A program made the position numbers and the translations under genes. DNA of 20,000 bases from an uncultured virus (IMG/VR IMGVR_UViG_3300020051_001048). Its lineage: Duplodnaviria; Heunggongvirae; Uroviricota; Caudoviricetes. A model generated the notes under the pieces. That model did not search any database, was not told the DNA's origin, and saw nothing but the letters and a program-made list of their open reading frames with translations. Below are positions 3,353-19,182 of the stretch, one piece after another; positions within the stretch are counted from its first letter, which is position 1, and each line of letters begins with the position of its first letter. Where the stretch lies: the IMG/VR virus record IMGVR_UViG_3300020051_001048; one strand, given 5' to 3'.

Positions 3353-4206
3353 TTAACTTTTTCTTCAATCTTTTTGAGTAGTTGTTTGGATCTGACGTTA
3401 GAGGTGTGCTTCAGCATCACTTGGCTCTTAATCTTTTCTAAAATATTTGACTCATCAACATCTTCTTCATCTAGTATTTCAGACAAGAACTTTGATAAAT
3501 TTTCTGAGTCTTGTATTTTCAGCGAAACATCTTCTGAATTTAAAATGCTATCAAAGAAAATCTGACCACATAGATCTTTTGTTTTCCCGCACAATGTAAT
3601 ATTCTTATAATTTCTATATATTGGTTTCATTGTGACGGTGTTTACAAAGAAGTCAAAATCGGGATCTTTCTCATGACTAATTTTAATCTTATGGTATACT
3701 TCTTTTTTTGAACATAATTTTTGATATTCTTCAGAGTTTTCAACGGCGAGAACAGCACTGTCAATATTAAATTTAGGTGTTGATATTTGAATTTCATCAA
3801 TGTTAGCTGCTGGTAGAAGTTTAAACAGTTCGTGTTTTTTTGGTTTTACTGATTCCATGAAGTCATAAGCATTAGAAATCATAAACAAACAATTTATATT
3901 AAATTGATCTATAATGCTCTCTAATTTGTCTAAATCTTCTTGAGATTCCAAGCCGCTAATACTGAGAATTACTTTGATGTTTTTTTCTTGATTTGTTGAT
4001 AGATACTTAACAATATCTTTGTTCATAAGCCCAAAGTGACAGATAAGAATGTCTGGCTCAGTTCTATCTAACATATCATATGCGCTGTAACGGTTTACCT
4101 CCCATAGTCCGCTCTGGTGATCTGACGGATGGCTATTGATTCCATTGCTTAGATAGTATGGCTCACTAGAAGTTGGGGTTGTATAATTTTGTATTAGAAT
4201 TTTCAT
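3349..4206 (-). CDS. Hypothetical protein, possibly a divergent GT-B/CgeB-like fold
   Basis: 285 aa. Starts MKILIQN, has EPDILICH, and ends KHTSNVRSKQLLKKI, resembling the end of the CgeB-like gene at 1169-2020 (NHTYKNRTQRILEIL). Confidence 0.45.
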   Translation of the reverse strand: MKILIQNYTTPTSSEPYYLSNGINSHPSDHQSGLWEVNRYSAYDMLDRTEPDILICHFGLMNKDIVKYLSTNQEKNIKVILSISGLESQEDLDKLESIIDQFNINCLFMISNAYDFMESVKPKKHELFKLLPAANIDEIQISTPKFNIDSAVLAVENSEEYQKLCSKKEVYHKIKISHEKDPDFDFFVNTVTMKPIYRNYKNITLCGKTKDLCGQIFFDSILNSEDVSLKIQDSENLSKFLSEILDEEDVDESNILEKIKSQVMLKHTSNVRSKQLLKKIEEKVK

Positions 4207-4934
4207 ACCGAGTCCTTTATACTTTTTAAGTTATTATATTTCTTTACTTGTCTTTCTAGATTTTTTATAACAGCTACTTCATAGTTTCTTGAGAAGTCAT
4301 TTATGGCTTCAAATAAAAATTTTGTCTTATAGTTAATATTAGAAATTATTTCATAAAATTTATTTACTTCTCTTTCACCGCATAGATAAAAATTCTCAAT
4401 CCAATAGTTATCTTTTAATCCAAGTGAAAGATTTTGCAATTTATAATTGTGGTTTATAGCTGAAATTTCAAACAGAGAATTAGAATTAGTATCTTGAGTT
4501 ATGATTGAATTTTTAGTATAGTCAATCTGCGAGTAATTCTCTTTAGAAAGTATTGTATTACATTGCTGTATGAAGATCCTAGAATTATTAGTATTTCCCA
4601 AACATAGTCTAATACTTTCACAACAATTAGTATTGTAATGTATCTGATTTTCAACAACTCTTACGTTATCAAATAATCCATCTTTAATGTGGCTATTTAT
4701 TTTAAATGACTCAAACCCCGTACATACGATTATTTCATAATTTACAAAACAAGACTTGATTGTTTCAATTTGTTTTTCCAGAATGGTCTTTTCACCAATC
4801 TTAATCATTGGGATTGGGCCATGAGACTTCATTCTATATCCATGATTTTCAGCAAGAATTATAAAGGTTATAAACTCTTTTATATCCTTGCGTTGCCTAT
4901 TTCTAGGGCTTGTTATACAGAATTTATTTTTCAT
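4203..4934 (-). CDS. Sugar-phosphate nucleotidyltransferase-like protein (NTP_transferase/LicC-like fold), signature motif degenerate
   Basis: FIILAENHGYRMKSHGPIPMIKIGEKTILEKQIETI...EIIVCTGF...VVENQIHYNTNCCESIRL parallels IILAAGxGxRM...PKxLxxIxxKxIL...IIVVxGY...N..Y..TN...S. Confidence 0.65.
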   Translation of the reverse strand: MKNKFCITSPRNRQRKDIKEFITFIILAENHGYRMKSHGPIPMIKIGEKTILEKQIETIKSCFVNYEIIVCTGFESFKINSHIKDGLFDNVRVVENQIHYNTNCCESIRLCLGNTNNSRIFIQQCNTILSKENYSQIDYTKNSIITQDTNSNSLFEISAINHNYKLQNLSLGLKDNYWIENFYLCGEREVNKFYEIISNINYKTKFLFEAINDFSRNYEVAVIKNLERQVKKYNNLKSIKDSV

Positions 4935-5670
4935 TGATATTTTTATAAAATTGAGATCCTTTAATCATCTTTCTAATATCTGATTCCATCATATCGTAAT
5001 TATTGAAATCTAGATAACGAGATTTAACAATTTTTGAGGATATGGTGAGGTTTCCGCTTGAATCTTCAAACACAAGTATCTTTTCTAAATCTTTATTTAT
5101 AGAAGCGTTTATATTACTTAAATAGTTTTTGTCTATTGTAGAACCCGCTTTGAGTTGCATGAGATAATTAGACTTTGATAGATATTTAAACGAATCAAAG
5201 TCTTTGATGTGTTGAACATTATTAAAATTGAATACAACTTTATTATTAATATCTTCTGCTTTTAATTGATGAGAAAGCAATACAAATTTTGATACTTCTT
5301 CTTTTTTTGCGGTACACTGTACTACTACGGCAAATTTGTTCTTAGGGTAGTCAATATTTTTTATAGAATCAATTGACTTTTGCATGTCCTCAAGGCTATC
5401 TTTTACAACAAGCACGATACCAACAGATGGATAAATATTTAGCAGGTCTTCTTCAAGTGAAGAGTCTTTATTGTTATTTAGATTGCAAACTCTACTTATA
5501 CTGTAAAATTTACCTTCTTCATTTATCTCTGCTTGTTGGTTTTCTTTAAACTTATCTAGTCTATTCGCAGAGCATCCTACTTGAATATTTTCTACTATAG
5601 CATACTTACACCCTTCACAGGAAGTTGTTATACTAAGATCTGACTGCTGAGATTTCATATCTAAATCCAT
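4924..5670 (-). CDS. Hypothetical protein: Cys-rich N-terminus plus a possible degenerate GT-A-like domain
   Basis: CEGCKYA...GC...RVC, then PSVGIVLVVKDSLEDMQKSIDSIKNIDYPKNKFAVVV, which resembles a GT2 N-terminus. No DxD. The start could be ATG at 5658. Confidence 0.5.
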   Translation of the reverse strand: MDLDMKSQQSDLSITTSCEGCKYAIVENIQVGCSANRLDKFKENQQAEINEEGKFYSISRVCNLNNNKDSSLEEDLLNIYPSVGIVLVVKDSLEDMQKSIDSIKNIDYPKNKFAVVVQCTAKKEEVSKFVLLSHQLKAEDINNKVVFNFNNVQHIKDFDSFKYLSKSNYLMQLKAGSTIDKNYLSNINASINKDLEKILVFEDSSGNLTISSKIVKSRYLDFNNYDMMESDIRKMIKGSQFYKNINEK

Positions 5671-6058
5671 TCATTTTAGAGTGTACGACGGTGAGGTTTA
5701 AAGATTTTACAATGTTTTCTGCTGATGCGAGATTCATCATAGACTTTACCTTTGAAACACAATCTCTTGCGCTTGATTCATCTATAACATTGTTTGTTAC
5801 ATTCTTGCAGAACATTCTTAAATCAATTCCACCCACCACAATCCTACCATTAACTCTTAGTTTATTTGTTATAGCCATCAGGTTTTCACCTAAAGCTTCT
5901 GGTTCAGAGTCATCTATAATATTTTGAGCAATGATTAATTCGCACTCATTGTCGGAGAACTCTTGTAGCTTTTGTGTCAGTGGGACATAATCCATTTTAA
6001 CATAATTAAATCCACCGATAGGTGCTTCATCTTTCGTAAGAATTTGTAATTTTGTCAT
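5633..6058 (-). CDS. Truncated/degenerate class I SAM-dependent methyltransferase-like protein
   Basis: FSDNECELIIAQNIID...LMAITNKLRVNGRIVVGGID resembles the FxDxSxDxIxAxxVLEH...RVLKPGGxLxIxxPD pattern. No GxG SAM motif visible. Confidence 0.5.
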   Translation of the reverse strand: MTKLQILTKDEAPIGGFNYVKMDYVPLTQKLQEFSDNECELIIAQNIIDDSEPEALGENLMAITNKLRVNGRIVVGGIDLRMFCKNVTNNVIDESSARDCVSKVKSMMNLASAENIVKSLNLTVVHSKMNGFRYEISAVRS

Positions 6059-6065
6059 TTTATTC

Positions 6066-7052
6066 CTATAGTATAGAAGATTGATAAATCTGATTAAAAA
6101 TCGTATTCCATTTTTCCGTAAAGTTTTCAGTTGTAAATCTACTTAACACTGTAGACCTAGCAGCTTTACCCATTTCTACTGCCATCTCTGGATTATTTAG
6201 TAGCTGTTCTACATATCCACGTAGTTCTTGTTCATCGTTTGATATAAAACCATTTTTCCCATGTTCAATAATTTTTGGTATTTCACATGTAGCGGTACTG
6301 ACAATCGCACAACCACAAGACATGGCCTCTAATAGAGCCGTAGGGAGCGGACTGAAGGTAGACGTATTAAGGAATACCGATGAAGACTGATATCCCTTTA
6401 CAAGCTCTTGAACCGAACTAGCGGCTTCAGAAAGACCCGGAGTATTTCCAATAACTTTCACTGGAAGCCCCTTTGTAATTCTTTGCCACCCAGAAAAGTT
6501 AAGACAATAATCTCTATTAATAAAATCGTTAGCTACGCTCAATACAACGTTGTCTCTTTTCTCTTCGCTAGAACAAAATGTTTCTGAGTCAACATTATGT
6601 GGAGCAACAATTCCATCACTAGAAAATCCCCAAGCATCTTTATTATACTCTGTATTAAATATGTTTAGGTGTCCTTTTATGGATTTTAAATAATTAACTT
6701 GCTCATTTGTCATATTTGGCGTAGGTACTGTATGCTCCATGCAAATTATTGGCAATTTAAAGGTTTTAGAAATATCAAACGCAATTTGCAGTTGACCAAA
6801 TTTACTTTGAGCTAAAATAAAGTCTAAATCAAGACCTTGAGGAATAGTATTTTCTGGTAAGATGTAATAGTTACTTGGTATTTTTGCGTAGTTTTCGTCC
6901 CACTTCTTACCTTTATTGTGATCGAAACAATAAAAATTGTGACCCGTTAGACATAAATCTGATTCGTATCTTTCATGCGTAGCAAAGGTTAAGATATTAT
7001 ATTTATCCTTTTTGCTTAATTTAGATAAAATCTGTAGCGTTTGATTACTCAT
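6066..7052 (-). CDS. Glycosyltransferase family 4 (GT-B)
   Basis: VFLNTSTFSPLPTALLEAMSCGCAIVSTATCEIPKIIEHGKNGFI and MGKAARSTVLSRFT form the GT4 C-terminal signature. Confidence 0.85.
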   Translation of the reverse strand: MSNQTLQILSKLSKKDKYNILTFATHERYESDLCLTGHNFYCFDHNKGKKWDENYAKIPSNYYILPENTIPQGLDLDFILAQSKFGQLQIAFDISKTFKLPIICMEHTVPTPNMTNEQVNYLKSIKGHLNIFNTEYNKDAWGFSSDGIVAPHNVDSETFCSSEEKRDNVVLSVANDFINRDYCLNFSGWQRITKGLPVKVIGNTPGLSEAASSVQELVKGYQSSSVFLNTSTFSPLPTALLEAMSCGCAIVSTATCEIPKIIEHGKNGFISNDEQELRGYVEQLLNNPEMAVEMGKAARSTVLSRFTTENFTEKWNTIFNQIYQSSIL

Positions 7053-8184
7053 TTATCGCTCCCTTCATTAGTTCTGCAACGTTTTTATAGGAGAATTGTT
7101 CTGCTCTCTTCAGTCCAGCAGCCTGATTCCTAGACTTATAGGAAATACTATCCTTTTTCCAAGAGTTATACAGTCTTCTCATTTGTTCTTTAATATCTTT
7201 CTCTGACGGCTGAAACCAATACTCCCTTCCGGTAAAGAGGTCTTGAAATGCTGCATCATCACATCTACAGATAGTTGAAACTCCATTAGCCAAGAATCCA
7301 GTTCTCCAATCATTCCTATCAATAAAATCTCTAGGTCCACCAAAATTAGAGCAGATTGGAGTGTTGCCAAAGCACATTGCTTCAAATGATGGGATAGACC
7401 AAGCTTCTCCGTGAGACGGACATATGAAACAATCGCAATACTGATGTAGCGCGTATAACTCTTCTTCTTTAATTTTAGAAGGCACTATAACTGGTCTTTT
7501 GTAGTCTGTCGAATTTCTATATAGACGCACATCTTTTTGGACTTTCGCAGATAGATTATTAACTAGCTCTTCCATCATTTTTGGATCGTGACCAAATTTA
7601 CTAACTTTAAGTATTAGAGCTACATCTTCTGAAGATTCAAATTCTGAATAAAAACAAGCAAGAATAGACTCAAGATTTTTTCTCTTATTTACATCTCCAA
7701 TATAGTAAAATTTGAATTTACCCTCTACGTTGGGTACTTTTATGTCGCCATATCTCCGTTTATATTTTTCTAATTCAAAAGTATGTGGAATCACTTTAAC
7801 CGGGATGCCGATTTCATCTTCAATTAAAGAATTTTTAAGTTGTTCATTTGGAACCCATACCTCATCCATCATTTTAAGGTTTTCTAACCAAGCGAGACCT
7901 TTAATACTGGTTGATTCGGAAGCAAAAAAAGCAATATTCTTTTTAAGCTTGTTATATTTAACAAGATAGTGCGGTAGAACATGTTGAATACAAATATCAC
8001 AATCAGAAGAATCTTTCTTCTCTAGCGCTAGAAGTCTGCTATCAACATCTTCTTTGTCACTAGTCAAAGTAACATTTCTGCAAACAACATCAACACCATT
8101 TTTGTCTAAGGCTAGTATATAGTCGGTTGCAGCCTGAGACCAGCCACCAAATTCCTTGTAATGTCCTATGTATAATATTTTCAT
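7045..8184 (-). CDS. Glycosyltransferase family 4 (GT-B)
   Basis: DEVWVPN, FYYIGDVNKRKNL, CDCFICPSHGEAWSIPSFEAMCFGNTPICSNFGG (E-x7-E motif). Confidence 0.88.
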   Translation of the reverse strand: MKILYIGHYKEFGGWSQAATDYILALDKNGVDVVCRNVTLTSDKEDVDSRLLALEKKDSSDCDICIQHVLPHYLVKYNKLKKNIAFFASESTSIKGLAWLENLKMMDEVWVPNEQLKNSLIEDEIGIPVKVIPHTFELEKYKRRYGDIKVPNVEGKFKFYYIGDVNKRKNLESILACFYSEFESSEDVALILKVSKFGHDPKMMEELVNNLSAKVQKDVRLYRNSTDYKRPVIVPSKIKEEELYALHQYCDCFICPSHGEAWSIPSFEAMCFGNTPICSNFGGPRDFIDRNDWRTGFLANGVSTICRCDDAAFQDLFTGREYWFQPSEKDIKEQMRRLYNSWKKDSISYKSRNQAAGLKRAEQFSYKNVAELMKGAINE

Positions 8185-8192
8185 AAAATTAT

Positions 8193-8858
8193 TTATCCTA
8201 AGTTATTGTTTTTGTAAAGAATATCTTCTTGCCATCCTTTTAAATTAGGATTATTTTGATTTGAAAAATTATTATCTTTTAAAAAGCTGTTTAATTCTTC
8301 AAACATAACTTGACCAGAATAGATTTCTTTATATGTTACTTCAGTATATATATATTTAACATTTTTCAGGTAGTCACCAAGACCTTTAAGTGCTAACATC
8401 TCAGCGCCTTGAAGATCCATCCATATAATGTCTACGTTTTCAACGCCATGTTTTTGCATTACACTGTCTAACCTATGACAATTTACGTTTATTTTGTATT
8501 GAGGAAGGCTTTCCGCAGTATAAGTTCCATTGTGTTGGAACATGGATGACGCTCCCGGATTTCCGTCTGCGTGAACTGTTTCATTTTTTTCTTGGTCTAT
8601 AGGATAAAAATCAACTGTGCCGTCATAGTCGCATACAGCACCTTCTATTAACTTCACCCTGTCTCCAACTTTGTAATTTTTTATATTGTTTTTACAAATA
8701 TCTAACGTGTTTGGATTGCACTCAAAAGAATATATATTAGAGTTTGGGAAAGCATAATACAACTCTATGCTTTGCATACAATCTCTAGCTCCAACATCCA
8801 GTATATTGTACTTTAAATTTCTATTTAAGTCTATATTGTAAATTAGATTTTCAATCAT
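8193..8858 (-). CDS. FkbM family methyltransferase
   Basis: ILDVGARD, IYSFECNP, GAVCDYDG, GASS, VNCHRLD, VDIIWMDLQGAEMLALKG, YIYTEV. GAGGA SD lies upstream. Confidence 0.9.
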   Translation of the reverse strand: MIENLIYNIDLNRNLKYNILDVGARDCMQSIELYYAFPNSNIYSFECNPNTLDICKNNIKNYKVGDRVKLIEGAVCDYDGTVDFYPIDQEKNETVHADGNPGASSMFQHNGTYTAESLPQYKINVNCHRLDSVMQKHGVENVDIIWMDLQGAEMLALKGLGDYLKNVKYIYTEVTYKEIYSGQVMFEELNSFLKDNNFSNQNNPNLKGWQEDILYKNNNLG

Positions 8859-8894
8859 TATTTTCCTCTAGTTTGAGTTCTGTTTTTTATTGGT

Positions 8895-9626
8895 TTAGCA
8901 ATTAACTTTAGTTAAACAGCTTGCATGATAGTAGCTTACAGATTTAAGCTCGCAGTATTCTGATTTATCAAATCCGTAATATAACGCTTCCCCCCACAGC
9001 ATATGGTCTCCCCATCTATAAATATAGATACCTTGAGATTCATTTACCTTGTCTATAAAATATTTAACGGTATCGTTTCCTCTAATTTTATTTAGATCCC
9101 AAGCAACGAGATTAGTATACGGGCCGCCTATCTCCTGCCTTGGTTGATCTGGAAAAATCTTTTTACAGAAGTCACTAAGCCCGTAAACATTGAACCAATC
9201 GTCTCCGCACCATTTTCCATAGACGCAAACTTTTTCATCAAGGGCATCAAAAATATGATCTAAGTCTGAATAAATAGTGCAGTCTTCGTCAATTCTCAGT
9301 AATTGGTCATAGCTTTTAACATAATCTAGAAATCCAGAGAACCAGAAGTTACACATATGCCTATAGTTCCAACCCCAAGGTCTTGTTGGTTCAAATATTG
9401 CATGGTTTCTAGGTTCAAATTTAGGTATAGTTATGAACTGTAACGGAATCTTAGTTTTAGATTGTATATATTCTTGTTGATCTTCACTAATGTTTCCTTC
9501 GTTGAACACAAGAAAGTCGTAATCTCTCTGTATGTTCTCTTCTATGGAATTGTTTCTTTGAATAAAAGAATCATATTCATCTATGTTTTTATAACCTCTT
9601 GTTAATAATGCTATAGCTCTTTTCAT
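8895..9626 (-). CDS. GT15 (Kre2/Mnt1-like alpha-1,2-mannosyltransferase)-like glycosyltransferase
   Basis: NYRHMCNFW, YDQLLRIDEDC, YTNL and GIYIYRWGDH parallel the GT15 motifs YRHMCRF, YxYYWRVEPD, WSNF and GGFFYERWGDA. Confidence 0.7.
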   Translation of the reverse strand: MKRAIALLTRGYKNIDEYDSFIQRNNSIEENIQRDYDFLVFNEGNISEDQQEYIQSKTKIPLQFITIPKFEPRNHAIFEPTRPWGWNYRHMCNFWFSGFLDYVKSYDQLLRIDEDCTIYSDLDHIFDALDEKVCVYGKWCGDDWFNVYGLSDFCKKIFPDQPRQEIGGPYTNLVAWDLNKIRGNDTVKYFIDKVNESQGIYIYRWGDHMLWGEALYYGFDKSEYCELKSVSYYHASCLTKVNC

Positions 9627-11308
9627 TTAGAATTTCCTGCAATTTGGTTAATTCTTTGAACTCTGAGATTTTCCCAATAGTTTCTTTTTTCACACATTCC
9701 TCTTAGCTGTTGATATGCAATATCAAGGTCGAACGGATTCCTAAAACCCTGAGAGTCAAATATTTGACTACTCTCGTTGAAGTACATACCGCCAGTTGAG
9801 GATGTTGATTGTCTATACAACAAATCTCTTGTTAGTCTAGATTCAAAAAACGTATTAAGTTTGGAGCTATCTCCAAGAACATTAACAATTAACCATCTTG
9901 CGAGGTCTTTGTGTCTAACATTATCTTTCAGGTCTGGCTTTGGTGCTGGTTCTATAATTTTTGGTTCAGAACCCCACCCTTGCTGGAACTCAATTGGGTC
10001 AGTTTCATCAAAGTATTTCTCCCATCGAGCGCCACTTAAATGCCACTGATAGTGTTTTTCAAAGTTTTCTCTAGTCCTTTTACCCATAGCCACTCTATCT
10101 TCTTCATTCATTTTTTCAAAGAAGTGTAAGAAAATTTCTGAAGCATATTCATTATCTGGTACTGCTCTAAGACATCCTGTTTCCAGTTCTTTGTATAAAG
10201 CTGCTGGCGTGATAGTGAACCCTTCTAGCTTCCTTAAAACACTTTCCATAGCGGAATAATCAGTTCCGCACACGGGAACCCCACACGCCGCAGCTTCTAC
10301 TTGAGGGAGTCCGAATCCCTCGCAGTTTGCATATTGAGTATAAAGATCAAAACAGTTCATAACTTTTGCTAAATCTTCATAGCTCAAACCATTTTTAACG
10401 TTTGAAAGAGTTGACCCCCACTTCCCTGTATAGGGAGATTGAGCAATTGCGCCTTTAAATTTTGATGAGAATGGCTTTTTAGTCTCTGGGCAAATGTATG
10501 TGAATAGTACATTTGAGGCAATTCCATATTGGTTTAGTAGCTCTGGTATATCCCAACCAAGGTCTGGATAAGATGTATGACAGTAGAGATAATATTTCTT
10601 ACTCTTTGATTTATTTAAGAACTTTTTAAATGCTTCAAATAAATCAGGATATAGTTTACGGCGTTGATTGCGCATAACAGTGCCGATAATTTTATACTCT
10701 GGGTCAATTCCCATAGCTAACTTGTGAGCATTTTTATTATCTATTGGAGCATAAGCTGCGTGAGCAGATGGTGGCGCACTTCCTAGATAATTAATTTTAC
10801 CGCCAGACTGATCTTTTAAGACTCCACCAGCCCAATCAGAATATGTTAGACATCCATCTGCACCAGCATACGTGGCAATCCACTGTCTAGCTTGAGGTCT
10901 TGCGTCAACAGTAGGCATTACAACCCACTTAAAATATGGTCTAAATGGAGACCGTTCTGCAAAGTCAAGCATCCAAAAATCACGAATATCACAAACAAAA
11001 TCTGGTAAAAAATCCAAACAAACATTTTCAAATATCCATTCCCCAAATTGGTTGCTTGGTGAGCTTTGATACTTTTGTATTTCTTCTTGGCTCGCTTTTG
11101 GTTCATTGTGCATATTTGGCGCTACACCATAATATTTCCAAGGAATGTTTGCTGCCCTAGAGTCATTTCTTTCTCCGTAAGAAGACATTTCAGCAATTTC
11201 GTATTTACCAGTACTATGCAAATAGTTTAAGATTTCTCTAGTGTATGTAGCATATCCGGTGTTAAGAAATGTAGCTTCGCTACAGAATAGAATTCTTTTC
11301 TTTCTCAT
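9623..11308 (-). CDS. Large glycosyltransferase family 4 (GT-B) protein
   Basis: RILFCSEATFLNTGYA, IGTVMRNQRRKLYPDL, FDLYTQYANCEGFGLPQVEAAACGVPVCGTDYSAMES, plus a C-terminal extension of roughly 120 aa. Confidence 0.88.
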   Translation of the reverse strand: MRKKRILFCSEATFLNTGYATYTREILNYLHSTGKYEIAEMSSYGERNDSRAANIPWKYYGVAPNMHNEPKASQEEIQKYQSSPSNQFGEWIFENVCLDFLPDFVCDIRDFWMLDFAERSPFRPYFKWVVMPTVDARPQARQWIATYAGADGCLTYSDWAGGVLKDQSGGKINYLGSAPPSAHAAYAPIDNKNAHKLAMGIDPEYKIIGTVMRNQRRKLYPDLFEAFKKFLNKSKSKKYYLYCHTSYPDLGWDIPELLNQYGIASNVLFTYICPETKKPFSSKFKGAIAQSPYTGKWGSTLSNVKNGLSYEDLAKVMNCFDLYTQYANCEGFGLPQVEAAACGVPVCGTDYSAMESVLRKLEGFTITPAALYKELETGCLRAVPDNEYASEIFLHFFEKMNEEDRVAMGKRTRENFEKHYQWHLSGARWEKYFDETDPIEFQQGWGSEPKIIEPAPKPDLKDNVRHKDLARWLIVNVLGDSSKLNTFFESRLTRDLLYRQSTSSTGGMYFNESSQIFDSQGFRNPFDLDIAYQQLRGMCEKRNYWENLRVQRINQIAGNSK

Positions 11309-11309
11309 T

Positions 11310-11636
11310 TTATTCCTTTTCTAAGCACCCAAAGTCAAATTCGTTAATTCTAAATACAATATCATCAGTAGCATCTGTTTTCATGACACCATTTCTAGCA
11401 GAAGCATAGACGGTCATTTTAGTTCCTTTCTTGCCGAGCTTGGCGATTGTTTCTGCTCCAGATGCCCATGCTTGTAGAGTGATGGTCGTGGGAACTTTCT
11501 TTTTTTCTCCGCGCTTGTTCTTACGATACTCGTAAGTGACCAATTTGACAGTACAGCAGCTAGCTCCACCGTCTGCTTCCCCCGTTTCAATCTGTGGGTC
11601 ATGTAATAGATACCCAGTAAAAGTACAATTATTCAT
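11310..11636 (-). CDS. ssb: Single-stranded DNA-binding protein (OB fold), short, lacking the acidic tail
   Basis: MNNCTFTGYLLHDPQ...GEKKKVPTTITLQAWASGAETIAKLGKKGTKMTV follows the SSB pattern N...GxLxxDP...T.W...W...AE...KG. Start moved to ATG 11636 because AGGAG lies 6 nt upstream; the track start at 11663 is immediately downstream of the -10 box. Confidence 0.75.
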   Translation of the reverse strand: MNNCTFTGYLLHDPQIETGEADGGASCCTVKLVTYEYRKNKRGEKKKVPTTITLQAWASGAETIAKLGKKGTKMTVYASARNGVMKTDATDDIVFRINEFDFGCLEKE

Positions 11637-11668
11637 CAATTTCTCCTGTGTAAAATGTCTCACTCTAT

Positions 11669-11697: not shown

Positions 11698-13257
11698 TTA
11701 AATTTCGTGAATTTTATCAATAATAAATGATCCATTCTTCTCTACCTCTCCGCAAAACAATAGATTTACACCTTCATCTAATATAAATACGTATTTATCT
11801 GTAGCTTGCGGGAATACAACCACGTTGTCGATAGAGCATGTGTCATCTTCAAGAGTTAAGAAGCACATATCTTTACCCTTACTCTTACCCTTCTGACACT
11901 TATACTTCTGTAGCCTACTAACATTTGCAACCAAGCATATGTTTTTACCAAATTTACCATCTAATATCTCTTTACATGTGGTATTAGAGTGTGAAGTGTC
12001 AGAAGCTTCTACTCTAGATAAAGATATAGGACATCCAAGATACTTCTTCTCTTGTTCTACAATCCACTCTGGGTGATCAGATAGATCGTATGGTGGGTTT
12101 TCTAAAAAATGAATTTCATTTCCTATGACCTGTTTTCTATCAACCTTGCTTGTTCCTCCACCCTCTTTTTTAGTTGGTGCAAGATCAACAAAGCAATCCT
12201 TTAATGTTTTCCACTTCTTAGATTTATAGTTATCAGTTACCCACTTTAGCTCTGCCTTGGTTAGATTTTTAAATATCAGGTATTCGTATAGAGCTTTATT
12301 TCTAGTAACGCCCGTTTTCTTTGTCGAAAAGAATCCTATAGAGCAAAGAGCTTTAAATCCAGTGGAGTTTATATTAGAAGACAGGTAGATTAGAATATCC
12401 ATCCAAGTAAGATTGTGTAGGGGTTTATTAATATCTTCCGACACTTTCTCAATAGCATTTATTACTTTATCTCCATTCACACCAGTAAGTGATTTAACAT
12501 CTTTAATACCAAAGCATAAATTATTCTTGTTAACAAAGAATGTTTTATCCCATGTCGTTATGTTTGGAAGTTTTACCTCAATGTCAAACAGTTTAGCTTC
12601 TGATACAAGTTCGTATACTTCTTGGTGGGGGTCTTGTTTTTCATTCGCGTAGGTTAGGTATGACAAAAAGAACTCTTTGGTGTAGTTTGCTTTATACCAA
12701 GCACTCTTGTAAGAGTTGATTGCATAGCACACAGCGTGAGATTTATTAAATGAATATCGCGAAGATTTCTCAATCCACCCAAATATTTCTTCTGCGATTT
12801 CTTTATCGACCTTTCCAACCTTTTCACAACCAATGAGAAAGTCTTTCTTGACTTCCGCCATGAGGTCTGCCTTCTTCTTACCAATAGCCTTACGCAGAAC
12901 ATCTGCTTCTTGAAGATTAAACCCAGCAAGGTCTTTCGCGATGCGCATAGATTGTTCTTGATAGATTAGAACGCCCTTGGTAGTTTCAAGTATATCTGTC
13001 AAAGTAATATGAAGATATTTAATTATATCAAGGCCGCTCTTCCTATCAACATAGTGTTGGGTCATAGACTTACCATCTGCAATAGCTTTTAGCGATCCCG
13101 GACGAATCAAAGCAATCAACGCTGAAAGTTCTTCAATATTAGTTGGTTGTAATCTTTTCGACCAAGCGCGACCAAGATTACTTTCTAATTGAAAGATACC
13201 TTTGGTTCTACCCTCTTTAAAAAGATTCCAAGTTTTTTCATCATTATAATCAATCAT
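11698..13257 (-). CDS. dnaE: DNA polymerase III alpha subunit, C-terminal half (fingers, HhH, OB fold) of a split dnaE
   Basis: TKGIFQLES, LIALIRPG, GVLIYQEQ, ADVLRKAIGKKK, YSFNKSHAVCY, EKKYLG, and the OB fold KGKDMCFLTLEDDT. It begins at the position equivalent to E. coli DnaE IPLDDKKSF. Confidence 0.92.
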   Translation of the reverse strand: MIDYNDEKTWNLFKEGRTKGIFQLESNLGRAWSKRLQPTNIEELSALIALIRPGSLKAIADGKSMTQHYVDRKSGLDIIKYLHITLTDILETTKGVLIYQEQSMRIAKDLAGFNLQEADVLRKAIGKKKADLMAEVKKDFLIGCEKVGKVDKEIAEEIFGWIEKSSRYSFNKSHAVCYAINSYKSAWYKANYTKEFFLSYLTYANEKQDPHQEVYELVSEAKLFDIEVKLPNITTWDKTFFVNKNNLCFGIKDVKSLTGVNGDKVINAIEKVSEDINKPLHNLTWMDILIYLSSNINSTGFKALCSIGFFSTKKTGVTRNKALYEYLIFKNLTKAELKWVTDNYKSKKWKTLKDCFVDLAPTKKEGGGTSKVDRKQVIGNEIHFLENPPYDLSDHPEWIVEQEKKYLGCPISLSRVEASDTSHSNTTCKEILDGKFGKNICLVANVSRLQKYKCQKGKSKGKDMCFLTLEDDTCSIDNVVVFPQATDKYVFILDEGVNLLFCGEVEKNGSFIIDKIHEI

Positions 13258-13726
13258 TATTTTTATTACTTTTTCTTTTCTGTTGAGCTTTTTTAGAGTT
13301 AAATCCGTTCGTCACCCATTGTAAATTTTCTACCCTGTAGTCTGACTTGTCATCGTTTATATGATCTACTTCTAGTTTTTTAGAAGTGTCATCATTTTCT
13401 ACAAATGCTAATGCTACTAATCTATGCATAGCTATTACAACTCCACCCATACCTATACAGGGGTACTGATTTCTAGTAGTGCTTATGGATAACTTTTTAC
13501 CTTTTGTTCCTATTACATACGGAAAACCACCAGTATTCTTATGAAGGAAATATTTACCAGAATCCATAGAGTTTAATTTAGAAATCATGATGTTAGATTT
13601 TCTATGCATCTCCTTGTCGCCAACAAAGTTAGCTTTTATCTTACTAACATCAATTACATCTTCATCAGAAATTTCATGGTTTGCCGCTTCCGATAATTCA
13701 AATAAAGTTAGCTGTCTTAAATTCAT
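13250..13726 (-). CDS. Free-standing HNH (HNH_3-type) endonuclease, putative homing endonuclease
   Basis: YPCI...MHRLVALAFVEN...EVDHINDDKSDYRVENLQWVTNGFN. Overlaps dnaQ (ATGA) and dnaE-C (ATGATTGA). Confidence 0.85.
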   Translation of the reverse strand: MNLRQLTLFELSEAANHEISDEDVIDVSKIKANFVGDKEMHRKSNIMISKLNSMDSGKYFLHKNTGGFPYVIGTKGKKLSISTTRNQYPCIGMGGVVIAMHRLVALAFVENDDTSKKLEVDHINDDKSDYRVENLQWVTNGFNSKKAQQKRKSNKNND

Positions 13727-14397
13727 AGATAAGTATTCCCGTTAGCAAATGCCTTTTCAAGTTTTAGGTTTCTATAAACAGCGCGATGAGTCTTCATGAA
13801 CTTAATCATCAGGTTAGCAGTATCCTTAACGTCCTGTAACGCATCGTGAGCGTTTTCAGAAGACATACCCATACGTTCTCTAATACTATCCATACTTCTA
13901 GTTTTAATAGATGGATCGCCTTCTGTCCACATCCAATAGTTGTCCATCATATCAATTTTATAAATTTGATGGAATAGCTTTTGCTTTTTCCTCTCTTTGT
14001 CCCAAGGTCCAAATTCTTCACATAATCTATCAATAATTATCATATCATAGCCAAGAATATTATAACCAGCGGGGATCGGAGCGAAGAATGGCGTGCTTTT
14101 CCAGTTGTATTTGTCAACAAATGCGCAAAACTTATTCCAAGTGGGTTTTAGTTTTGGCGCTTTTGCAATCTGCTCTCTGGTTTTACCAGTCACCTTTAGC
14201 GCACCTTCTTCTAATGGTGTTAAACCCATCTTGACTGCTTTATCATCATCTGTTTCAGCCCATATCTCACTATTAAAAGTTCCTTTTAGCTTTAAACTTC
14301 TACCATCTAGAGCTAGCGCAGCTATCTGAGTTGGTTGACACGTCCTTGGGTCACGGCCACCGGTTTCAAAGTCAAAGACTATAATATCTCTATTCAT
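13723..14397 (-). CDS. dnaQ: DEDDh 3'-5' exonuclease, DNA polymerase III epsilon-like
   Basis: ExoI VFDFETGG, ExoII GYNILGYD, ExoIII HDALQD. Embedded between the two dnaE halves. Confidence 0.85.
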   Translation of the reverse strand: MNRDIIVFDFETGGRDPRTCQPTQIAALALDGRSLKLKGTFNSEIWAETDDDKAVKMGLTPLEEGALKVTGKTREQIAKAPKLKPTWNKFCAFVDKYNWKSTPFFAPIPAGYNILGYDMIIIDRLCEEFGPWDKERKKQKLFHQIYKIDMMDNYWMWTEGDPSIKTRSMDSIRERMGMSSENAHDALQDVKDTANLMIKFMKTHRAVYRNLKLEKAFANGNTYL

Positions 14398-16027
14398 TTT
14401 TTTCCTTTATGAGTGCTTCAATATACATTAATTTATCTAATAGGTTAATTGCAAGAACGTCAAACTTAACGTGACCTAGAGCTTCTAAGTCTGTCATCTC
14501 AAGACCTGCAATCTTTTCTTTACTACTTTTTGAGTTTACCATAGGACACACTTGACCAAGAGGCTCTGCTGAAATGACAACACCAGCAGCATGTTTTCCT
14601 TGAGTTTTAAGTGTTCCTTCAATCTTAATAGCTTGCTCAAAATACTCAGCGTAATCACCCTCTAAATATCCTTTATCATTTACATGACAATAATCATATA
14701 ATCCTTCTGAGTTATTTTGCAATGCCCAGCGAATAATAGAGCGATCTTCCTCATCCATCTGCGATAGTTGATCAGATATGGCGGCTTCATCTGGAATGTA
14801 TTTAGTGATTTCATTCATAACGCTAAATCCACAAGCCTCGTTGACCCGTAGAATCTCTTTAATTGCGCTACGGCCTTGAAGTCTACCAAACGTCACCATC
14901 TGGCTTACATTCTCATGACCGTACTTATCTTTAATATTTTCAATAATTTGGTCGCGCTTCTTTCCGGGAATGTCAATGTCAATATCAGGCAAAGAAATGT
15001 TGTCTTTGGTGTTACGACCGGGGTTGTAAAATCTTTCAAACAAAAGGTCAAACTCGATTGGATCTACTTCTGTAATACCAATCAAATACGAAATCAAACA
15101 GCCAGCAGCAGAGCCACGACCCGGACCAACCATCCAACCTTGATCTTTTGCATACTGAATAATATCTTGAACGATCAAGAAATAACCAGACAATTTTGCT
15201 TCTTTTATAATATCAAACTCTTTTCTAAACCTATCGCCATATTCATTCCAGTATGGAGAGTCTTTTTCAATGTGCGGGAGTTTCTTTTTCCAGCCTTTTC
15301 TAGCAAGCTTAGTTAGGTATTGCTCTTCGGACTCTCCGTTTGGCGTTTTAAATTTTGGCAACTTAGGATTGCTTAGAATATTATAATTCTCACATTCGTT
15401 ATATATCTTTTCTAATTCCTGTAAACCTTCTGGGTCTTCTAGCATAACCTCTGTTGCTTCTATTTTATCTGGAACAAAGTAGTGAGAAAAGTCAAAGAAT
15501 TTCTTATTATCAAACTCTTCACCTTTTTGGTATAGTTTTCTCATTTTTGGTAGAGTAGTTTTCATCTCTGAACATAGAAGAATCCTGTGTAGGTTAGCGT
15601 CTTCTTTTTCTACATAGTGCATGTCTTGAAAACATTTGGTTTTATTATACCAGCCGCTTTTTACTGGTGAGTCAGCAGCGGATTCTGCGAGAACCAAAAG
15701 GTTGCCCTTATTGCAAATATCTGACATGTCGCTGCTATTATAGTTTCCGTCTGCATCTAGAAGAGATACAATTTTTATTAGGTCAAACCAACCGTCTTTA
15801 TTCTTAGCAAACAGAGTAAATTTATCAAACGAGCATCCTATTATTGGCTTAACATCATTTGCTACGCAGGCTTTATAAAAAGCAACTGATCCAGAGATAG
15901 TTTTATAGTCGGCAATTCCGCAAGCGCGAAAATTATTCTCCGCGCATTTCTTAGCAAGCTCTTTGGGTTTAGAGAAACCCTTTAGAAGTGAATAGTGCGT
16001 GTAATTACACAATGGGAACCAAGTCAT
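14390..16027 (-). CDS. dnaE: DNA polymerase III alpha subunit, N-terminal half (degenerate PHP, palm, thumb) of a split dnaE
   Basis: YSLLKG, KPIIGC, GYFLIVQD, VGPGRGSAAGCLISYLIGITEVDPI, LLFERFYNPGR, catalytic PDIDID, HAAGVVIS and KFDVL. It stops 20 codons after the last catalytic Asp. ATG 16027 has a GAAAGGA SD (the track uses TTG 16030). Confidence 0.92.
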   Translation of the reverse strand: MTWFPLCNYTHYSLLKGFSKPKELAKKCAENNFRACGIADYKTISGSVAFYKACVANDVKPIIGCSFDKFTLFAKNKDGWFDLIKIVSLLDADGNYNSSDMSDICNKGNLLVLAESAADSPVKSGWYNKTKCFQDMHYVEKEDANLHRILLCSEMKTTLPKMRKLYQKGEEFDNKKFFDFSHYFVPDKIEATEVMLEDPEGLQELEKIYNECENYNILSNPKLPKFKTPNGESEEQYLTKLARKGWKKKLPHIEKDSPYWNEYGDRFRKEFDIIKEAKLSGYFLIVQDIIQYAKDQGWMVGPGRGSAAGCLISYLIGITEVDPIEFDLLFERFYNPGRNTKDNISLPDIDIDIPGKKRDQIIENIKDKYGHENVSQMVTFGRLQGRSAIKEILRVNEACGFSVMNEITKYIPDEAAISDQLSQMDEEDRSIIRWALQNNSEGLYDYCHVNDKGYLEGDYAEYFEQAIKIEGTLKTQGKHAAGVVISAEPLGQVCPMVNSKSSKEKIAGLEMTDLEALGHVKFDVLAINLLDKLMYIEALIKEKNE

Positions 16028-16056
16028 CAATGTCCTTTCAAGTTAGTGTTCAATAT

Positions 16057-16095: not shown

Positions 16096-16674
16096 TTATT
16101 TTTTCACTTTACACATAAAGGATGGAAATTGCTCATTAGTGATTCCCACCATTTCTAAATGATCTTCTTGAATAGCTTCTATGACAGGAATGATTACACC
16201 TGCGCCCCACACACTAGGGGTTACGCAAAAGTCGTGTCCTGAAATTATTCCGTCTTTTTTTACAACTCTAATGCAACGTTGAAGCTGATCTGTCATAGAC
16301 TTTTGATCGTGACCAGAATCTATGTAAACCCAGTCTAAAGAGTTATCTGATTGTTTATCTAACCACGAGGATATCTCAGACCTACATACTTCTACTTTAT
16401 CATTCCCTAGAAATACAGACGACACAAACTCAGAATAGTTATCGAACTTTCTTCTTTCTTTTTTTTCGCAAATATTCCCCGGCGTATTAAAACCTGCTAT
16501 TGCAACTGGCGGTTGATCGCTCGGCCACAAATCTACAAGAAAAAGTTTACTTGGTTTTGCTTGATGTAGAAGGTTTATAGCATTATACCCCTTCGCTACA
16601 CCTAGCTCCGCACCGATTCCTTTAGAGGGAATGTGCGAAAACATATCTATTCTATTAGAGTGAAAGTAAATCAT
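16096..16674 (-). CDS. Class I SAM-dependent methyltransferase (Methyltransf_24-like)
   Basis: GAELGVAKG, LFLVDLW, LDWVYIDSGHD, VKKDGIISGHDF. Confidence 0.85.
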   Translation of the reverse strand: MIYFHSNRIDMFSHIPSKGIGAELGVAKGYNAINLLHQAKPSKLFLVDLWPSDQPPVAIAGFNTPGNICEKKERRKFDNYSEFVSSVFLGNDKVEVCRSEISSWLDKQSDNSLDWVYIDSGHDQKSMTDQLQRCIRVVKKDGIISGHDFCVTPSVWGAGVIIPVIEAIQEDHLEMVGITNEQFPSFMCKVKK

Positions 16675-17257
16675 AATCGAACCTTTCTAAAATGTGTTGA
16701 CAACTCTGGTCTATAAATTGTAGGCTACTTCCGTTCAGTAAATCTTGGGTTTGTTCTAGCTTTCGAGAAGCATTTCTACGCCTATTAATAAATTTTTTTA
16801 CATCTTCTTTTATGGGAATATCGTAAAGGTCGGCCAACTGATTCATTGACTGCTCCAAATTTTCAAATTTAAATATTTGTTTACATTCTTTGTCTGTTCC
16901 GATACCATAAAACCTATCAAAGTGATTACCAAGTTGAAAAACATCTTCTCCTTTGCACTTCTGTATGAATTCATTGATATCATTTGATCTAAGACGCTCA
17001 AAAGAGGTGGTAGAGATTTTCCAATTTACTGTGTGCATAAAGTGGAACATGGAAACGTACCAAGAAACAGGATGCCTAATAAAACCAAAGCTATTGCAAC
17101 CTTCTGGTAATTCTTCAACCCCCAAATGTCCTCCATTTTTCGTATAATTTATAGGTTTAAAATTGCACTTGTTTAATATCTCAGAAACCCACCAACCTCC
17201 ACATTTTTCTAAATGTAGAAATGCAATGTTCTTTTCTTTATTTATCATAGATGGCAT
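16655..17257 (-). CDS. Sulfotransferase family protein (Sulfotransfer_2-like)
   Basis: FLHLEKCGG resembles the 5'-PSB loop FxHIPKTGG, FIRHPVSWYVS resembles the 3'-PB motif RxPxxRxxS, and FKFENLEQ is also typical. Confidence 0.65.
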   Translation of the reverse strand: MPSMINKEKNIAFLHLEKCGGWWVSEILNKCNFKPINYTKNGGHLGVEELPEGCNSFGFIRHPVSWYVSMFHFMHTVNWKISTTSFERLRSNDINEFIQKCKGEDVFQLGNHFDRFYGIGTDKECKQIFKFENLEQSMNQLADLYDIPIKEDVKKFINRRRNASRKLEQTQDLLNGSSLQFIDQSCQHILERFDYDLLSL

Positions 17258-19182
17258 TAGAGTGTCACCCCCTCATTTATTGATATAACATAAGTATTTT
17301 TAATTTTATTTTTAGCAATTAGTCTAGATTGATGGGGGCAGCTTTCTATGAAATAAACTGGTTTAATTTTTTCACTAGGGGTGGTTATCGCATAGTTATT
17401 AAAGACTTTTGACTTGTATTCTCCAACATTCTTCAGGTGGTTTATATCTCTTTCTTCTTTTGTTCCGTTAAACATTATTAATTCGTTGTATTTTATACCA
17501 TGCTTTTTTAGCCATTCTTCTGTTTGAGGTCTGTATTTTTCAAGTCTACCCGTACATATTGCCATACAATTAAATAATTTTGGAATTCTTGAATTAATTG
17601 GTAATACATCGGTGAGCCATTTTTCATATTCATTTTGATTTTCCGCCACTTCATAGGGGCAGTCTTTACAAAAAACACCGTCTAAATCAAATATTCCATA
17701 CAGAGATGTGTGAGCATTGAAAAAATTCCATTCTAATACATGGGGATATGGCGCACATACATTGGCTATATCTAATATATTTTTACCGTCAACACACATT
17801 GGGTGTGAATAAATTGTTGTATATAGGAACTTTTCCTTTGGGTACTTCTTATTAAACAACTCTTTTGTTCTCATAATTTCAGCGCCACTATAACTAGTGT
17901 CATCTACAACTAAATAAGGTAAAGATTTATTTTCGTTGAACATTTTCATTCTAGATCCACCATCTTTTGATCTGGTAGAGTGTAGCTTCTTTATTTCTCC
18001 TTCAGAGACGCTGTATAAAGGCACAGACATGTTGACCGAAATCACTGAGGCTGGTATCATTCCCGATCTCGGCAACCCAATTACACCTTTTATTGGCGGT
18101 AATTTCTCGCATAGTTTTGTAGATTCTTCTACTAGGTCTTTAGTCGTTAGAAACTTTCCCGGTTCGATAAAACTAATATCGCTATGTGATTTTAGGATTT
18201 TTTCTTTTTCTTCATTATCCCAAGGTAGACTGATTTGGTTACAATTTTTAACTTTATTTGGTGACTTCATTTCATAATTTCCAGATATTATCCTTTTTAG
18301 GATCTCCATTCGATATTCATGCGGTCTAGCGGCATTTATATGTATGAATTGAGGTTTAAAAAATTCACTATTGAGTAGACTCCAAAATTCTGGATCTATA
18401 AATTCTAGATTATACTTTTTACTGAGGATAAAATATTCTTCTGGCTTTAGGTTTATTCCCATTAAATGTTGGTCATATGTCCATATATTTTTATATACAG
18501 GATTGTTTATAGAGTAATTGTCCGCATATTTATGCGGTAGAAGCAGAATTCCAGCTTGGGGTTGTAGGTGATACGTAAATTTCTTACCAAGAATTGTACA
18601 TAAATACTGCCTAACGTTCTTAAAGCTTTTGTAGAATTTCTCATCTTTTTGTACTGTTTCTACTTCGTTTGTAAAGCACATTTTATGTGAATGTGGGTGT
18701 TCAAACAAGTTTTGGGCGTTTTTCGTGACTATGATATCACAGTCTAAGTATAGAGTTTTTTCGTAGTGTCTGACTACATTTTTTAGCCTATACTTATTAC
18801 CAAGCCCCCACTCTGGACACTTGTCACCTGTAAGCTCTACGTAATCGGCGCCGCACTTTTTTGCATACTCTATAATATTTTGCCTAGTAATCTCCAATTG
18901 TTCTTCACAATGCTTGTTACCGGCTATTGTGCAGATTGCATTTTTATTAGAAGGTGTCGGAATATCTTCTTCAAGTTGATCAAAGTTTATATGATACTCT
19001 TGAAAAAGAGATGCAGTTTGAAAATTATTGATATTAATCTTGCTAGATAATTCTAGATAATTTTCTCTTTCTTCTTTTGTTGCATCTTGACACCATTTCC
19101 AGTTAGGCGGCGATTCACCCATAACTTTACCAAAGACGGAGCAGAACCCCGCCTTTTCGCAATTACATTTAGATAGATCCAC
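17257..19182 (-). CDS. Multidomain enzyme: Cys-rich N-terminus, GT8-like glycosyltransferase, type I phosphoribosyltransferase-like domain and HAD phosphatase
   Basis: CNCEKAGFC...WCQ; KTLYLDCDIIV...QAGILLL...DQ...FIH; GVIGLPRSGMIPAS...LVVDDTSYSG; IFDLDGVFC...ICTGR...TEEWLKKHGIKYNELIM...K...FIES. GTG start abuts the upstream TAA. Confidence 0.75.
   Translation of the reverse strand: MDLSKCNCEKAGFCSVFGKVMGESPPNWKWCQDATKEERENYLELSSKININNFQTASLFQEYHINFDQLEEDIPTPSNKNAICTIAGNKHCEEQLEITRQNIIEYAKKCGADYVELTGDKCPEWGLGNKYRLKNVVRHYEKTLYLDCDIIVTKNAQNLFEHPHSHKMCFTNEVETVQKDEKFYKSFKNVRQYLCTILGKKFTYHLQPQAGILLLPHKYADNYSINNPVYKNIWTYDQHLMGINLKPEEYFILSKKYNLEFIDPEFWSLLNSEFFKPQFIHINAARPHEYRMEILKRIISGNYEMKSPNKVKNCNQISLPWDNEEKEKILKSHSDISFIEPGKFLTTKDLVEESTKLCEKLPPIKGVIGLPRSGMIPASVISVNMSVPLYSVSEGEIKKLHSTRSKDGGSRMKMFNENKSLPYLVVDDTSYSGAEIMRTKELFNKKYPKEKFLYTTIYSHPMCVDGKNILDIANVCAPYPHVLEWNFFNAHTSLYGIFDLDGVFCKDCPYEVAENQNEYEKWLTDVLPINSRIPKLFNCMAICTGRLEKYRPQTEEWLKKHGIKYNELIMFNGTKEERDINHLKNVGEYKSKVFNNYAITTPSEKIKPVYFIESCPHQSRLIAKNKIKNTYVISINEGVTL

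Follow-up and report, generated by a model that had tools for sequence, protein, structure and literature searches.

The 20,000-nucleotide stretch taken from the uncultured virus record IMGVR_UViG_3300020051_001048 (IMG/VR; Caudoviricetes), referred to here as the window, comes from a viral fragment of 25.5 kb in IMG/VR with an estimated completeness of 16%. Its minus strand carries a replication operon in the order dnaE N-half, exonuclease, HNH endonuclease, dnaE C-half and SSB. The first four genes overlap by 4-8 nt, with the HNH ATG overlapping the exonuclease stop codon as ATGA and the dnaE C-half starting inside the final HNH codons. The subject of this report is the small HNH protein, whose N-terminus, MNLRQLTLFE, contains a pentapeptide (QLTLF) that resembles the motifs through which bacterial proteins bind the beta sliding clamp, DnaN.

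The HNH open reading frame (ORF) begins with the ATG at 13726 and its translation opens MNLRQLTLFELSEAANHE, in exact agreement with a preliminary description of this DNA, which had placed QLTLF at the same positions (codons 5-9). A true start downstream of the motif, an objection raised in that description, is not what was found. The ATG at 13726 is the earliest start codon downstream of an in-frame stop, while use of the next in-frame start, M40, would cost residues 24-39, which are conserved at the protein level. In homologs the start codon lies 1-4 residues ahead of the motif glutamine, and three homologs with longer called N-termini have an internal methionine or similar immediately ahead of the motif. 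Further, in three related loci (L007-L009) the sequence AAGGA is located 5 nt upstream of the HNH ATG. Based on the first ATG, the conserved residues 24-39, the homolog starts and the AAGGA, the motif is translated.

Among 5.8 billion clustered proteins, 12 close homologs with 67-94% identity were found, and QLxLF followed by E or D occurs in 11 of them (12 of 13 sequences when the window is counted). The one close homolog lacking it, P0004, is called from 'MLFD' and is probably start-truncated. Position 3 of the motif is T, Q, E, P, N or K in these proteins and residues 11-22 are freely variable; an IMG/VR relative (L010) has QLKFF. The codons of the motif vary synonymously (CAG/CAA, CTA/TTA, TTA/TTG, TTT/TTC) while the residues stay, which argues that the constraint acts on the protein. 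Judged from these sequences, the motif is under protein-level selection.

The conservation extends well beyond the close homologs. A profile search of 1.84 billion cluster representatives gave a 35-member alignment with a mean column identity of 26%, in which position 1 of the motif is Q in 32 of 33 sequences (4.13 bits), position 2 is L in 24 of 33 (2.92 bits), position 3 is variable with D in 13 of 33 (1.41 bits), position 4 is L in 29 of 33 with F in 3 more (3.69 bits) and position 5 is F in 31 of 33 (3.93 bits). The columns flanking the motif mostly hold 0.5-1.5 bits. When the 35 members are classed by regular expression, 21 are strictly canonical, 9 near-canonical and 5 without a match, and a loose form, Q..[LMFI]F, fits 30 of the 35. 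The motif is therefore conserved among HNH homologs, near and far, a point on which the preliminary description had made its proposal depend. By contrast with this subfamily, none of 57 generic HNH_3 proteins has a QLxLF-type N-terminus. In a set of 206 more distant HNH_3 proteins there were 21 canonical hits, 16 of them within the first 20 residues and none within the last 20. The background rate of the canonical expression is 1.3e-4 hits per residue (1192 ORFs from all fetched loci), or about 0.2% expected per N-terminus, and in the 162-kb relative QLxLF occurs four times, one of which is the HNH protein itself. Two much longer proteins, P0099 (547 aa) and P0120 (435 aa), contain several HNH_3 stretches and begin with QLSLF right before NUMOD4-like strands, so the N-terminal tag is not confined to the short subfamily.

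Because Pfam, PHROG, PDB profile and fold searches all agree, the protein is classed by sequence and model as an I-HmuI-like HNH_3 nuclease. The Pfam HNH_3 match (residues 101-140) scores 34.9 bits against a curated cut-off of 24.8, and phrog_59 ('HNH endonuclease') matches with E 1.4e-20, alongside several further PHROG HNH endonuclease families. The PDB profile search returned I-HmuI (1u3e; E 8.7e-13, I-HmuI residues 20-103) as the only solved relative. The same structure is the top Foldseek hit (template modelling score 0.50, root-mean-square deviation 2.5 over 100 columns, 30% identity, probability 1.00), with an E-value of 1.7e-3, slightly higher than the 0.001 line of the tool. In the beta-beta-alpha metal finger, the catalytic residues H122, N134 and N143 are invariant across 13 close and 35 distant members. 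The protein has no Pfam match to NUMOD, IENR or AP2.

The arrangement of the protein was modelled with AlphaFold2 and a 71-row alignment (predicted local distance difference test, pLDDT, 79.9; predicted template modelling score 0.71), which replaced a fold from the 13 close homologs alone (pLDDT 41). The folded part starts near residue 21 and runs through a strand (residues 24-26) and a helix (39-53), both at pLDDT 80-87, to the beta region and then the HNH core. Residues 1-20 reach a pLDDT of 53-55 against 77-89 for the remainder, and no helix or strand of reportable length comes before residue 24; the motif is predicted to sit in an unstructured N-terminal tail not packed on the domain. The module that follows the tail has an invariant D26, with S28 in 30 of the 35 members, and is missing from generic HNH_3 proteins, whose start is the NUMOD4-like strands. 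When residues 1-56 were used to search proteins 86-277 residues long, there were 5 hits, all from the same HNH family. At the other end, the protein stops 11 residues past the core, leaving I-HmuI residues 104-174 without counterpart. Collectively, the sequences describe a widespread subfamily of short HNH_3 nucleases that has lost the C-terminal DNA-binding domain, has an N-terminal module specific to the subfamily and begins with a flexible QLxLF tail (Table 1).

Table 1. Features of the HNH gene and its operon in the window, and genomic settings of related HNH genes in other viral contigs
Feature	Position or loci	Strand	Basis	Motif
Predicted free-standing HNH_3 homing endonuclease gene, 158 aa	13250..13726	(-)	ORF, Pfam, PHROG, PDB profile, Foldseek	
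Clamp-binding-like short linear motif, residues 5-9	13700..13714	(-)	Canonical fit, family conservation, synonymous codons	QLTLF
Linker, variable, acidic, low-confidence, residues 10-20	13667..13699	(-)	Mostly 0.5-1.5 bits per column; pLDDT <50 for 10-16	
Subfamily-specific N-terminal module, residues 21-55 (D-[IVL]-S-x-I strand, helix 39-53)	13562..13666	(-)	Conservation, model	
NUMOD4-like beta region and HNH catalytic core, residues 56-147	13286..13561	(-)	Invariant columns; aligns with I-HmuI 20-103	
dnaE N-half (PHP and palm)	14390..16030	(-)	Pfam DNA_pol3_alpha E 2.5e-71, profile 1-260 of 260; PHP	
DnaQ-like 3'-5' exonuclease gene	13723..14397	(-)	Pfam RNase_T E 8.7e-11; phrog_192 'DNA polymerase exonuclease subunit'	
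dnaE C-half (fingers and OB)	11698..13257	(-)	Pfam DNA_pol3_finger E 3.7e-44	
SSB gene, conserved downstream neighbour	11310..11663	(-)	Pfam SSB; same order in related loci	
HNH between DnaB-like helicase and PolA	L117, L120, L121			QLDFF
HNH upstream of helicase	L116			QLDLF
HNH between AEP primase and UvrD helicase	L123-L134			QLKLF
HNH after T7-type primase-helicase, with a small ORF before PolA	L135-L137			QEDLF, QLDLF, QGDLF
HNH between Toprim primase and ThyX	L216, L217			QPDLF

The likeness of the tail to known clamp-binding peptides holds position by position. As described in passages of PMC11139829, the canonical clamp-binding motif is Q-phi-x-[L/M]-[F/L] or a hexamer form; the highest-affinity forms are QLxLF and QLDLF, with QLDLF the strongest-binding consensus peptide, and QLNLF is the motif of Pol V. 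In the hierarchy given there, the greatest weight falls on Q; position 2 tolerates substitution, Leu being the best residue, position 3 is highly variable, position 4 is important and Phe is preferred at position 5. The window's QLTLF fits both the canonical pattern and the QLxLF form. Conservation in the HNH family follows this hierarchy, with Q1, L4 and F5 above position 2 and position 3 free; 7 of the 35 members have QLDLF itself, and QLNLF also occurs among them.

HNH residues 1-56 were co-folded, with an alignment, with Escherichia coli DnaN, a stand-in that may not be the clamp of the host. The interaction prediction score from aligned errors (ipSAE) was 0.56 (0.55, 0.56 and 0.57 in the individual runs), the runs share at least 34% of contacts, and the best of three controls, namely two control partners and a replaced clamp, scored 0.00, as did the others; the verdict of the procedure is 'weak support'. 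The mark for this test was reached by 116 of 157 solved complexes and by 2 of 215 mismatched pairs. Scores of 0.60 or below account for just 18 of the 157 solved complexes, yet for both of the mismatches that passed. From the sequence pattern and this model, we consider it somewhat probable that the N-terminal QLxLF tail binds the beta clamp.

The HNH gene itself is sporadic. Its locus was compared in the best 80 viral contigs that encode a relative of the exonuclease, out of at least 434 confirmed relatives among at least 598 matched stretches. At the junction of the exonuclease gene and the dnaE C-half, the HNH family is present in 3 of the 80 loci, the exonuclease gene directly abuts the dnaE C-half in 41, another insert of 327-798 bp lies there in 35, and one locus stops short of the dnaE C-half; HNH is thus missing from 76 of the 79 loci that show the junction. 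The closest relative, L028, lacks it although its polymerase genes are 84-87% identical to those of the window. Aligned with the DNA of L028 and L031, both HNH-less, the window has about 480 bp cleanly inserted, reaching from the exonuclease stop to the dnaE C-half start. Further, between the window and L006 the HNH proteins are 91% identical, in contrast to the flanking products: dnaE N-half (55%), exonuclease (57%), dnaE C-half (43%), SSB (34%) and glycosyltransferase (41%).

Other cassettes use the same sites. Fourteen other inserts sampled at this junction comprise Endonuclease VII (5), a NaeI-like gene (1), weak glycosyltransferase or FkbM-methyltransferase matches (3) and genes without a Pfam match (5), one of which shows HNH-like motifs by eye. 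The junction of the dnaE N-half and the exonuclease gene carries an insert of 477-760 bp in 17 of the 80 loci. Both of these sites in the split operon are hot spots for insertion. None of the cassettes examined at either junction begins with QLxLF. Further cassettes at one or the other junction show HNH-like, HTH (helix-turn-helix)-HNH-like or FkbM-like features by eye. Sporadic occurrence at a fixed site, alternative nuclease cassettes and an identity discordant with the flanks are together the signature of free-standing homing endonucleases, and not one of these features would be expected of a domesticated replicase factor; on these comparisons the HNH gene is a mobile gene of this kind, not a replicase subunit.

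The split of dnaE is a separate and older event. The dnaE N-half and the exonuclease gene occur in 80 of 80 loci and the dnaE C-half comes next in all 79 that extend far enough; as this order is kept throughout, the split with the exonuclease gene between the halves is judged ancestral to the phage group and older than the HNH insertion. In HNH-less relatives the dnaE C-half overlaps the exonuclease stop directly, as seen in the junction alignment. The C-half of the window also has a weak OB-fold match (E 1.5e-4, under the Pfam cut-off). The two halves cover their Pfam profiles end to end, which leaves no room for a split intein. In another locus (L008:10455-12815; L009 is of the same contig family) the dnaE C-half is 786 aa long, with an insertion of about 267 residues, spanning alignment columns 59-325, after '..IRPG'. 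It begins with C, ends with HN before C and includes an HNH-like CxxC...H..N..CxxCH segment; by these features it looks like an intein with a homing endonuclease domain.

Within the exonuclease, residues 138-142 (window 13972-13986, minus strand) read KQKLF, for which the family consensus is QQKLF. This is the nearest motif-like stretch in the replication proteins; the first position is Q in 62% of 66 sequences and the F is invariant, and the stretch, which lies inside a folded domain, has a weak and non-canonical resemblance to the clamp motif. The replication genes are surrounded, at window positions 334-11308 and 16096-19182 (minus strand), by many consecutive genes for glycosyltransferases, sulfotransferases and methyltransferases. 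To these the 162-kb relative adds genes for sugar-nucleotide dehydratases or epimerases and for an aminotransferase, two DUF1501 genes, and two giant ORFs (4846 and 1773 aa). By annotation, such a glycan-modification repertoire would be unusually large for a phage.

Members of the HNH family occupy the replication modules of unrelated phages, encoding DnaE as in the window, a T7-type primase-helicase with PolA, a Toprim primase with ThyX, or an AEP primase with UvrD and PolA. Any partner shared across such different modules would more plausibly be a host protein than a phage protein. In the AEP-primase/UvrD contigs, which are podophage-like and also have the HNH gene with QLKLF, a family-A DNA polymerase (L130:4642-6504, with the same gene in L124, L126, L128 and L132-L134) begins MRSTQIPLFTPE, a canonical clamp-binding-type motif at its extreme N-terminus. 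This suggests, from sequence, that this PolA may use the host clamp. Among cultured phages, the window DNA gave only short hits in 6 Streptomyces phage records, the HNH protein matched from residue 37 onward only, and the dnaE N-half reached at most 30% identity. For one of two distant family members searched in the same way there was a single partial hit, for the other no hit at all.

Various observations weigh against clamp binding by the tail. In the co-fold the partner has a pLDDT of only 38-41, the support is weak and the clamp is that of E. coli. Clamp binding itself, the third point on which the preliminary description had made its proposal depend, has weak in-silico support from this model. 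Further, complexes of clamp and peptide are already in the PDB, and passing the test may reflect likeness only. In 9 of the 35 family members the motif contains a residue that is non-aliphatic or departs otherwise from the canonical form (QPDLF in three, QLDFF in two, and QFDLF, QGDLF, QQFLF and QPYLF). In 5 of the 35 no motif can be recognised, and two of these five begin only after the tail. No DnaN domain was found by PF00712 in the record of the window or by PF00712 and PF02768 in four related records, one of them 98% complete and three 60-62%. In the 98%-complete relative (162,690 bp), a Pfam scan of 136 ORFs found neither a clamp nor a clamp loader; of the 142 ORFs that are 90 aa or longer, the scan covered 136, with 8 ORFs that cross the 20-kb pieces left out. 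The Pfam repertoire of this relative includes DnaB, a RecA-like protein, two SSBs, RNR, ThyX and PhoH. The canonical motif (Q[LIVMA]x[LM][FL] or the hexamer) is also absent from the dnaE N-half, exonuclease, dnaE C-half and SSB of the window, and no canonical motif is conserved in 64-67 family sequences, which bears out the earlier remark that the DnaE halves lack an obvious clamp motif. Most other phages with HNH family members have PolA replisomes, and 10 of 11 helicase, primase and polymerase proteins checked there are without it. With no phage clamp found in the records searched and most replisome proteins lacking the motif, the presence of host clamps on phage DNA stays an assumption.

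These points lend some force to a partner other than the beta clamp, whether another host or phage protein or the nuclease itself, with the tail folding back in an autoinhibitory or structural role. Conservation reveals constraint and not the identity of a partner, no clamp was found in the phages scanned and most replisome proteins there lack the motif, co-folding gave weak support, and 7 of the 35 members have P, G, Q or F at the second position. Against this, the conservation agrees with the clamp motif position by position, many members have the optimum QLDLF, the tail is predicted to be unpacked, the unrelated replication modules make a phage-specific partner unlikely, and the control partners and the replaced clamp all scored 0.00. 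A functional motif with a different partner is therefore a real possibility, although clearly the lesser one. Less still can be said for the idea that the motif binds the host clamp to disturb host replication or repair by competing for the cleft, with the nuclease domain incidental. It would profit from QLxLF and QLDLF being the highest-affinity forms (passages of PMC11139829), and blocked host clamps need not hurt a phage whose polymerase has no motif. However, the motif always comes with an HNH core that is intact and whose catalytic residues are invariant, the gene occurs sporadically and moves horizontally, unlike a fixed host-takeover gene, and the module of residues 1-56 is confined to the HNH family among proteins of 86-277 residues, shorter stand-alone forms not having been searched for. 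We regard this kind of interference as unlikely.

The preliminary description had also considered that the HNH protein might be domesticated as a replicase-associated factor, that is, a stable subunit that links the motif-less split DnaE to the clamp. The position of the gene between the dnaE halves, the 4-8 nt overlaps and a polymerase without a canonical motif are what such a subunit might look like. Its distribution is not: the gene is missing from 77 of the 80 loci (76 of the 79 that show the junction, with L028 among them), even where the polymerase genes are 84-87% identical; other cassettes, the Endonuclease VII and NaeI-like genes included, fill the same slot in 35 loci; its identity of 91% stands against 34-57% for the flanks; and HNH relatives adjoin unrelated polymerases. 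A stable accessory subunit was rejected as a candidate on two of these counts, as the HNH gene does not accompany the polymerase wherever it occurs and its identity is discordant with that of the polymerase genes. Domestication is accordingly very improbable. Hardest of all to credit is a chance match, or a by-product of a nucleotide constraint such as translational coupling at the ATGA overlap. The HNH start does overlap the exonuclease stop, and composition predicts roughly one QLxLF per phage genome. Yet codons change synonymously while residues are kept, the motif is retained where mean column identity has fallen to 26% and where the genes upstream are quite different, and 16 of 21 hits fall in the first 20 residues, a strong positional enrichment. 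On the sequence evidence, chance is already contradicted by the synonymous codons, the distant conservation and this enrichment.

The best explanation, to which we give modest preference, is a mobile I-HmuI-like nuclease inserted between the exonuclease gene and the dnaE C-half, with a QLxLF tail that docks on the clamp. What is shown is the family of the nuclease, its mobile character, where the motif lies and how well it is conserved, the predicted disorder of the tail and the loss of the C-terminal domain; clamp binding and replication coupling we infer. The tail would dock in the hydrophobic DnaN cleft of the host, in the manner of Hda with its N-terminal motif, and the clamp would then tether the nuclease to DNA that bears loaded clamps, supplying DNA affinity and a one-dimensional search in place of the missing DNA-binding domain. 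It would also put the nuclease on replicating DNA, where a nick or cut at the HNH-less exonuclease/dnaE-C junction of a co-infecting genome could be turned into recombinational repair that copies the cassette in. The replication-coupled homing or nicking put forward in the preliminary description is, on this evidence, the best reading of the gene and is partly supported. In its most general form, the proposal is that a widespread class of phage homing endonucleases gave up its DNA-binding domain and borrows the universally conserved beta clamp of the host, through an N-terminal QLxLF, for tethering and scanning during replication-coupled homing. The cassette could then hop among unrelated phages, with DnaE, T7-type PolA or AEP primase, and among hosts, all bacteria having the same clamp cleft. 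This general form remains tentative, and we place it rather below the clamp binding itself.

Homing endonucleases are usually regarded as self-sufficient, with DNA-binding modules of their own to locate the target. A literature search weighted towards open access, with most subscription journals outside its scope, found nothing that links homing or HNH endonucleases with clamp-binding motifs. If the proposal is true, these nucleases would be a new class of clamp clients, a nuclease subfamily that recruits the host sliding clamp, and the connection of mobile elements with the clamp, so far one of transposons, would come to include homing genes. Phage homing has long been suspected of being coupled to replication and to repair by recombination, and clamp recruitment would supply a mechanism for this. 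The optimal QLDLF versions found in the HNH family may serve as natural clamp ligands. Should clamp binding fail, there would still be a strongly conserved N-terminal short motif in a widespread family of phage nucleases.

The closest known systems fall into two groups, the first being homing endonucleases. I-HmuI, the closest solved relative, is encoded by an intron in the polymerase gene of phage SPO1 and nicks one strand. Like the window's protein, I-HmuI (PDB 1U3E, from a Bacillus phage) is phage-borne and associated with a polymerase gene, and the two have in common the NUMOD4-like beta region and the HNH core. The window's protein is without the C-terminal part of I-HmuI (residues 104-174), which we take to consist of DNA-binding helices and a helix-turn-helix in its last 70 residues. 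Instead it has a 55-residue N-terminal extension with QLxLF that is missing from I-HmuI and from generic HNH_3 proteins, and its gene, as the clean insertion indicates, is free-standing and not intron-encoded. The seg and mob genes of T-even phages are likewise free-standing homing endonucleases, and mobE is the cause of a split nrdA. Such free-standing homing genes lie at or within phage genes for replication and nucleotide metabolism. As here, they occur sporadically at one fixed junction between conserved genes, where other nuclease cassettes may take the same slot. In the window, by contrast, the split of dnaE is older than the insertion, and the nuclease bears a clamp-binding-like tag.

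The second group consists of proteins that depend on the clamp. Hda has its motif, QLSLPL, a few residues from a disordered N-terminus, much as in the HNH tail (passages of PMC11139829). It differs in being a cellular AAA+ regulator of DnaA whose peptide binds with a dissociation constant of 0.38 uM (same source), whereas the HNH tail is known from sequence and model; the motif of the phage nuclease is, moreover, the pentamer QLxLF. MutL is a nuclease that depends on the clamp as a tether to DNA (PMC4678855; also in a table of PMC11139829). It is, however, a cellular mismatch-repair nuclease of another fold, with an internal motif, and is not mobile. Phage Mu provides a further user of the clamp in MuC (PMC12867686). 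The transposases of insertion sequences (IS) and TnsE of Tn7 belong to mobile elements and have conserved clamp-binding motifs, through which movement of the element is tied to host replication; the clamp was bound by peptides from nine IS families and from Tn7 but not by Q1/L4 mutants (passages of PMC3971601; see also PMC4549789). The clamp-transposase passages of PMC3971601 do not mention HNH or homing endonucleases. The IS transposases and TnsE described there are transposition proteins whose motifs are mostly C-terminal or internal, whereas in the HNH family the tag stands at the N-terminus of a homing nuclease.

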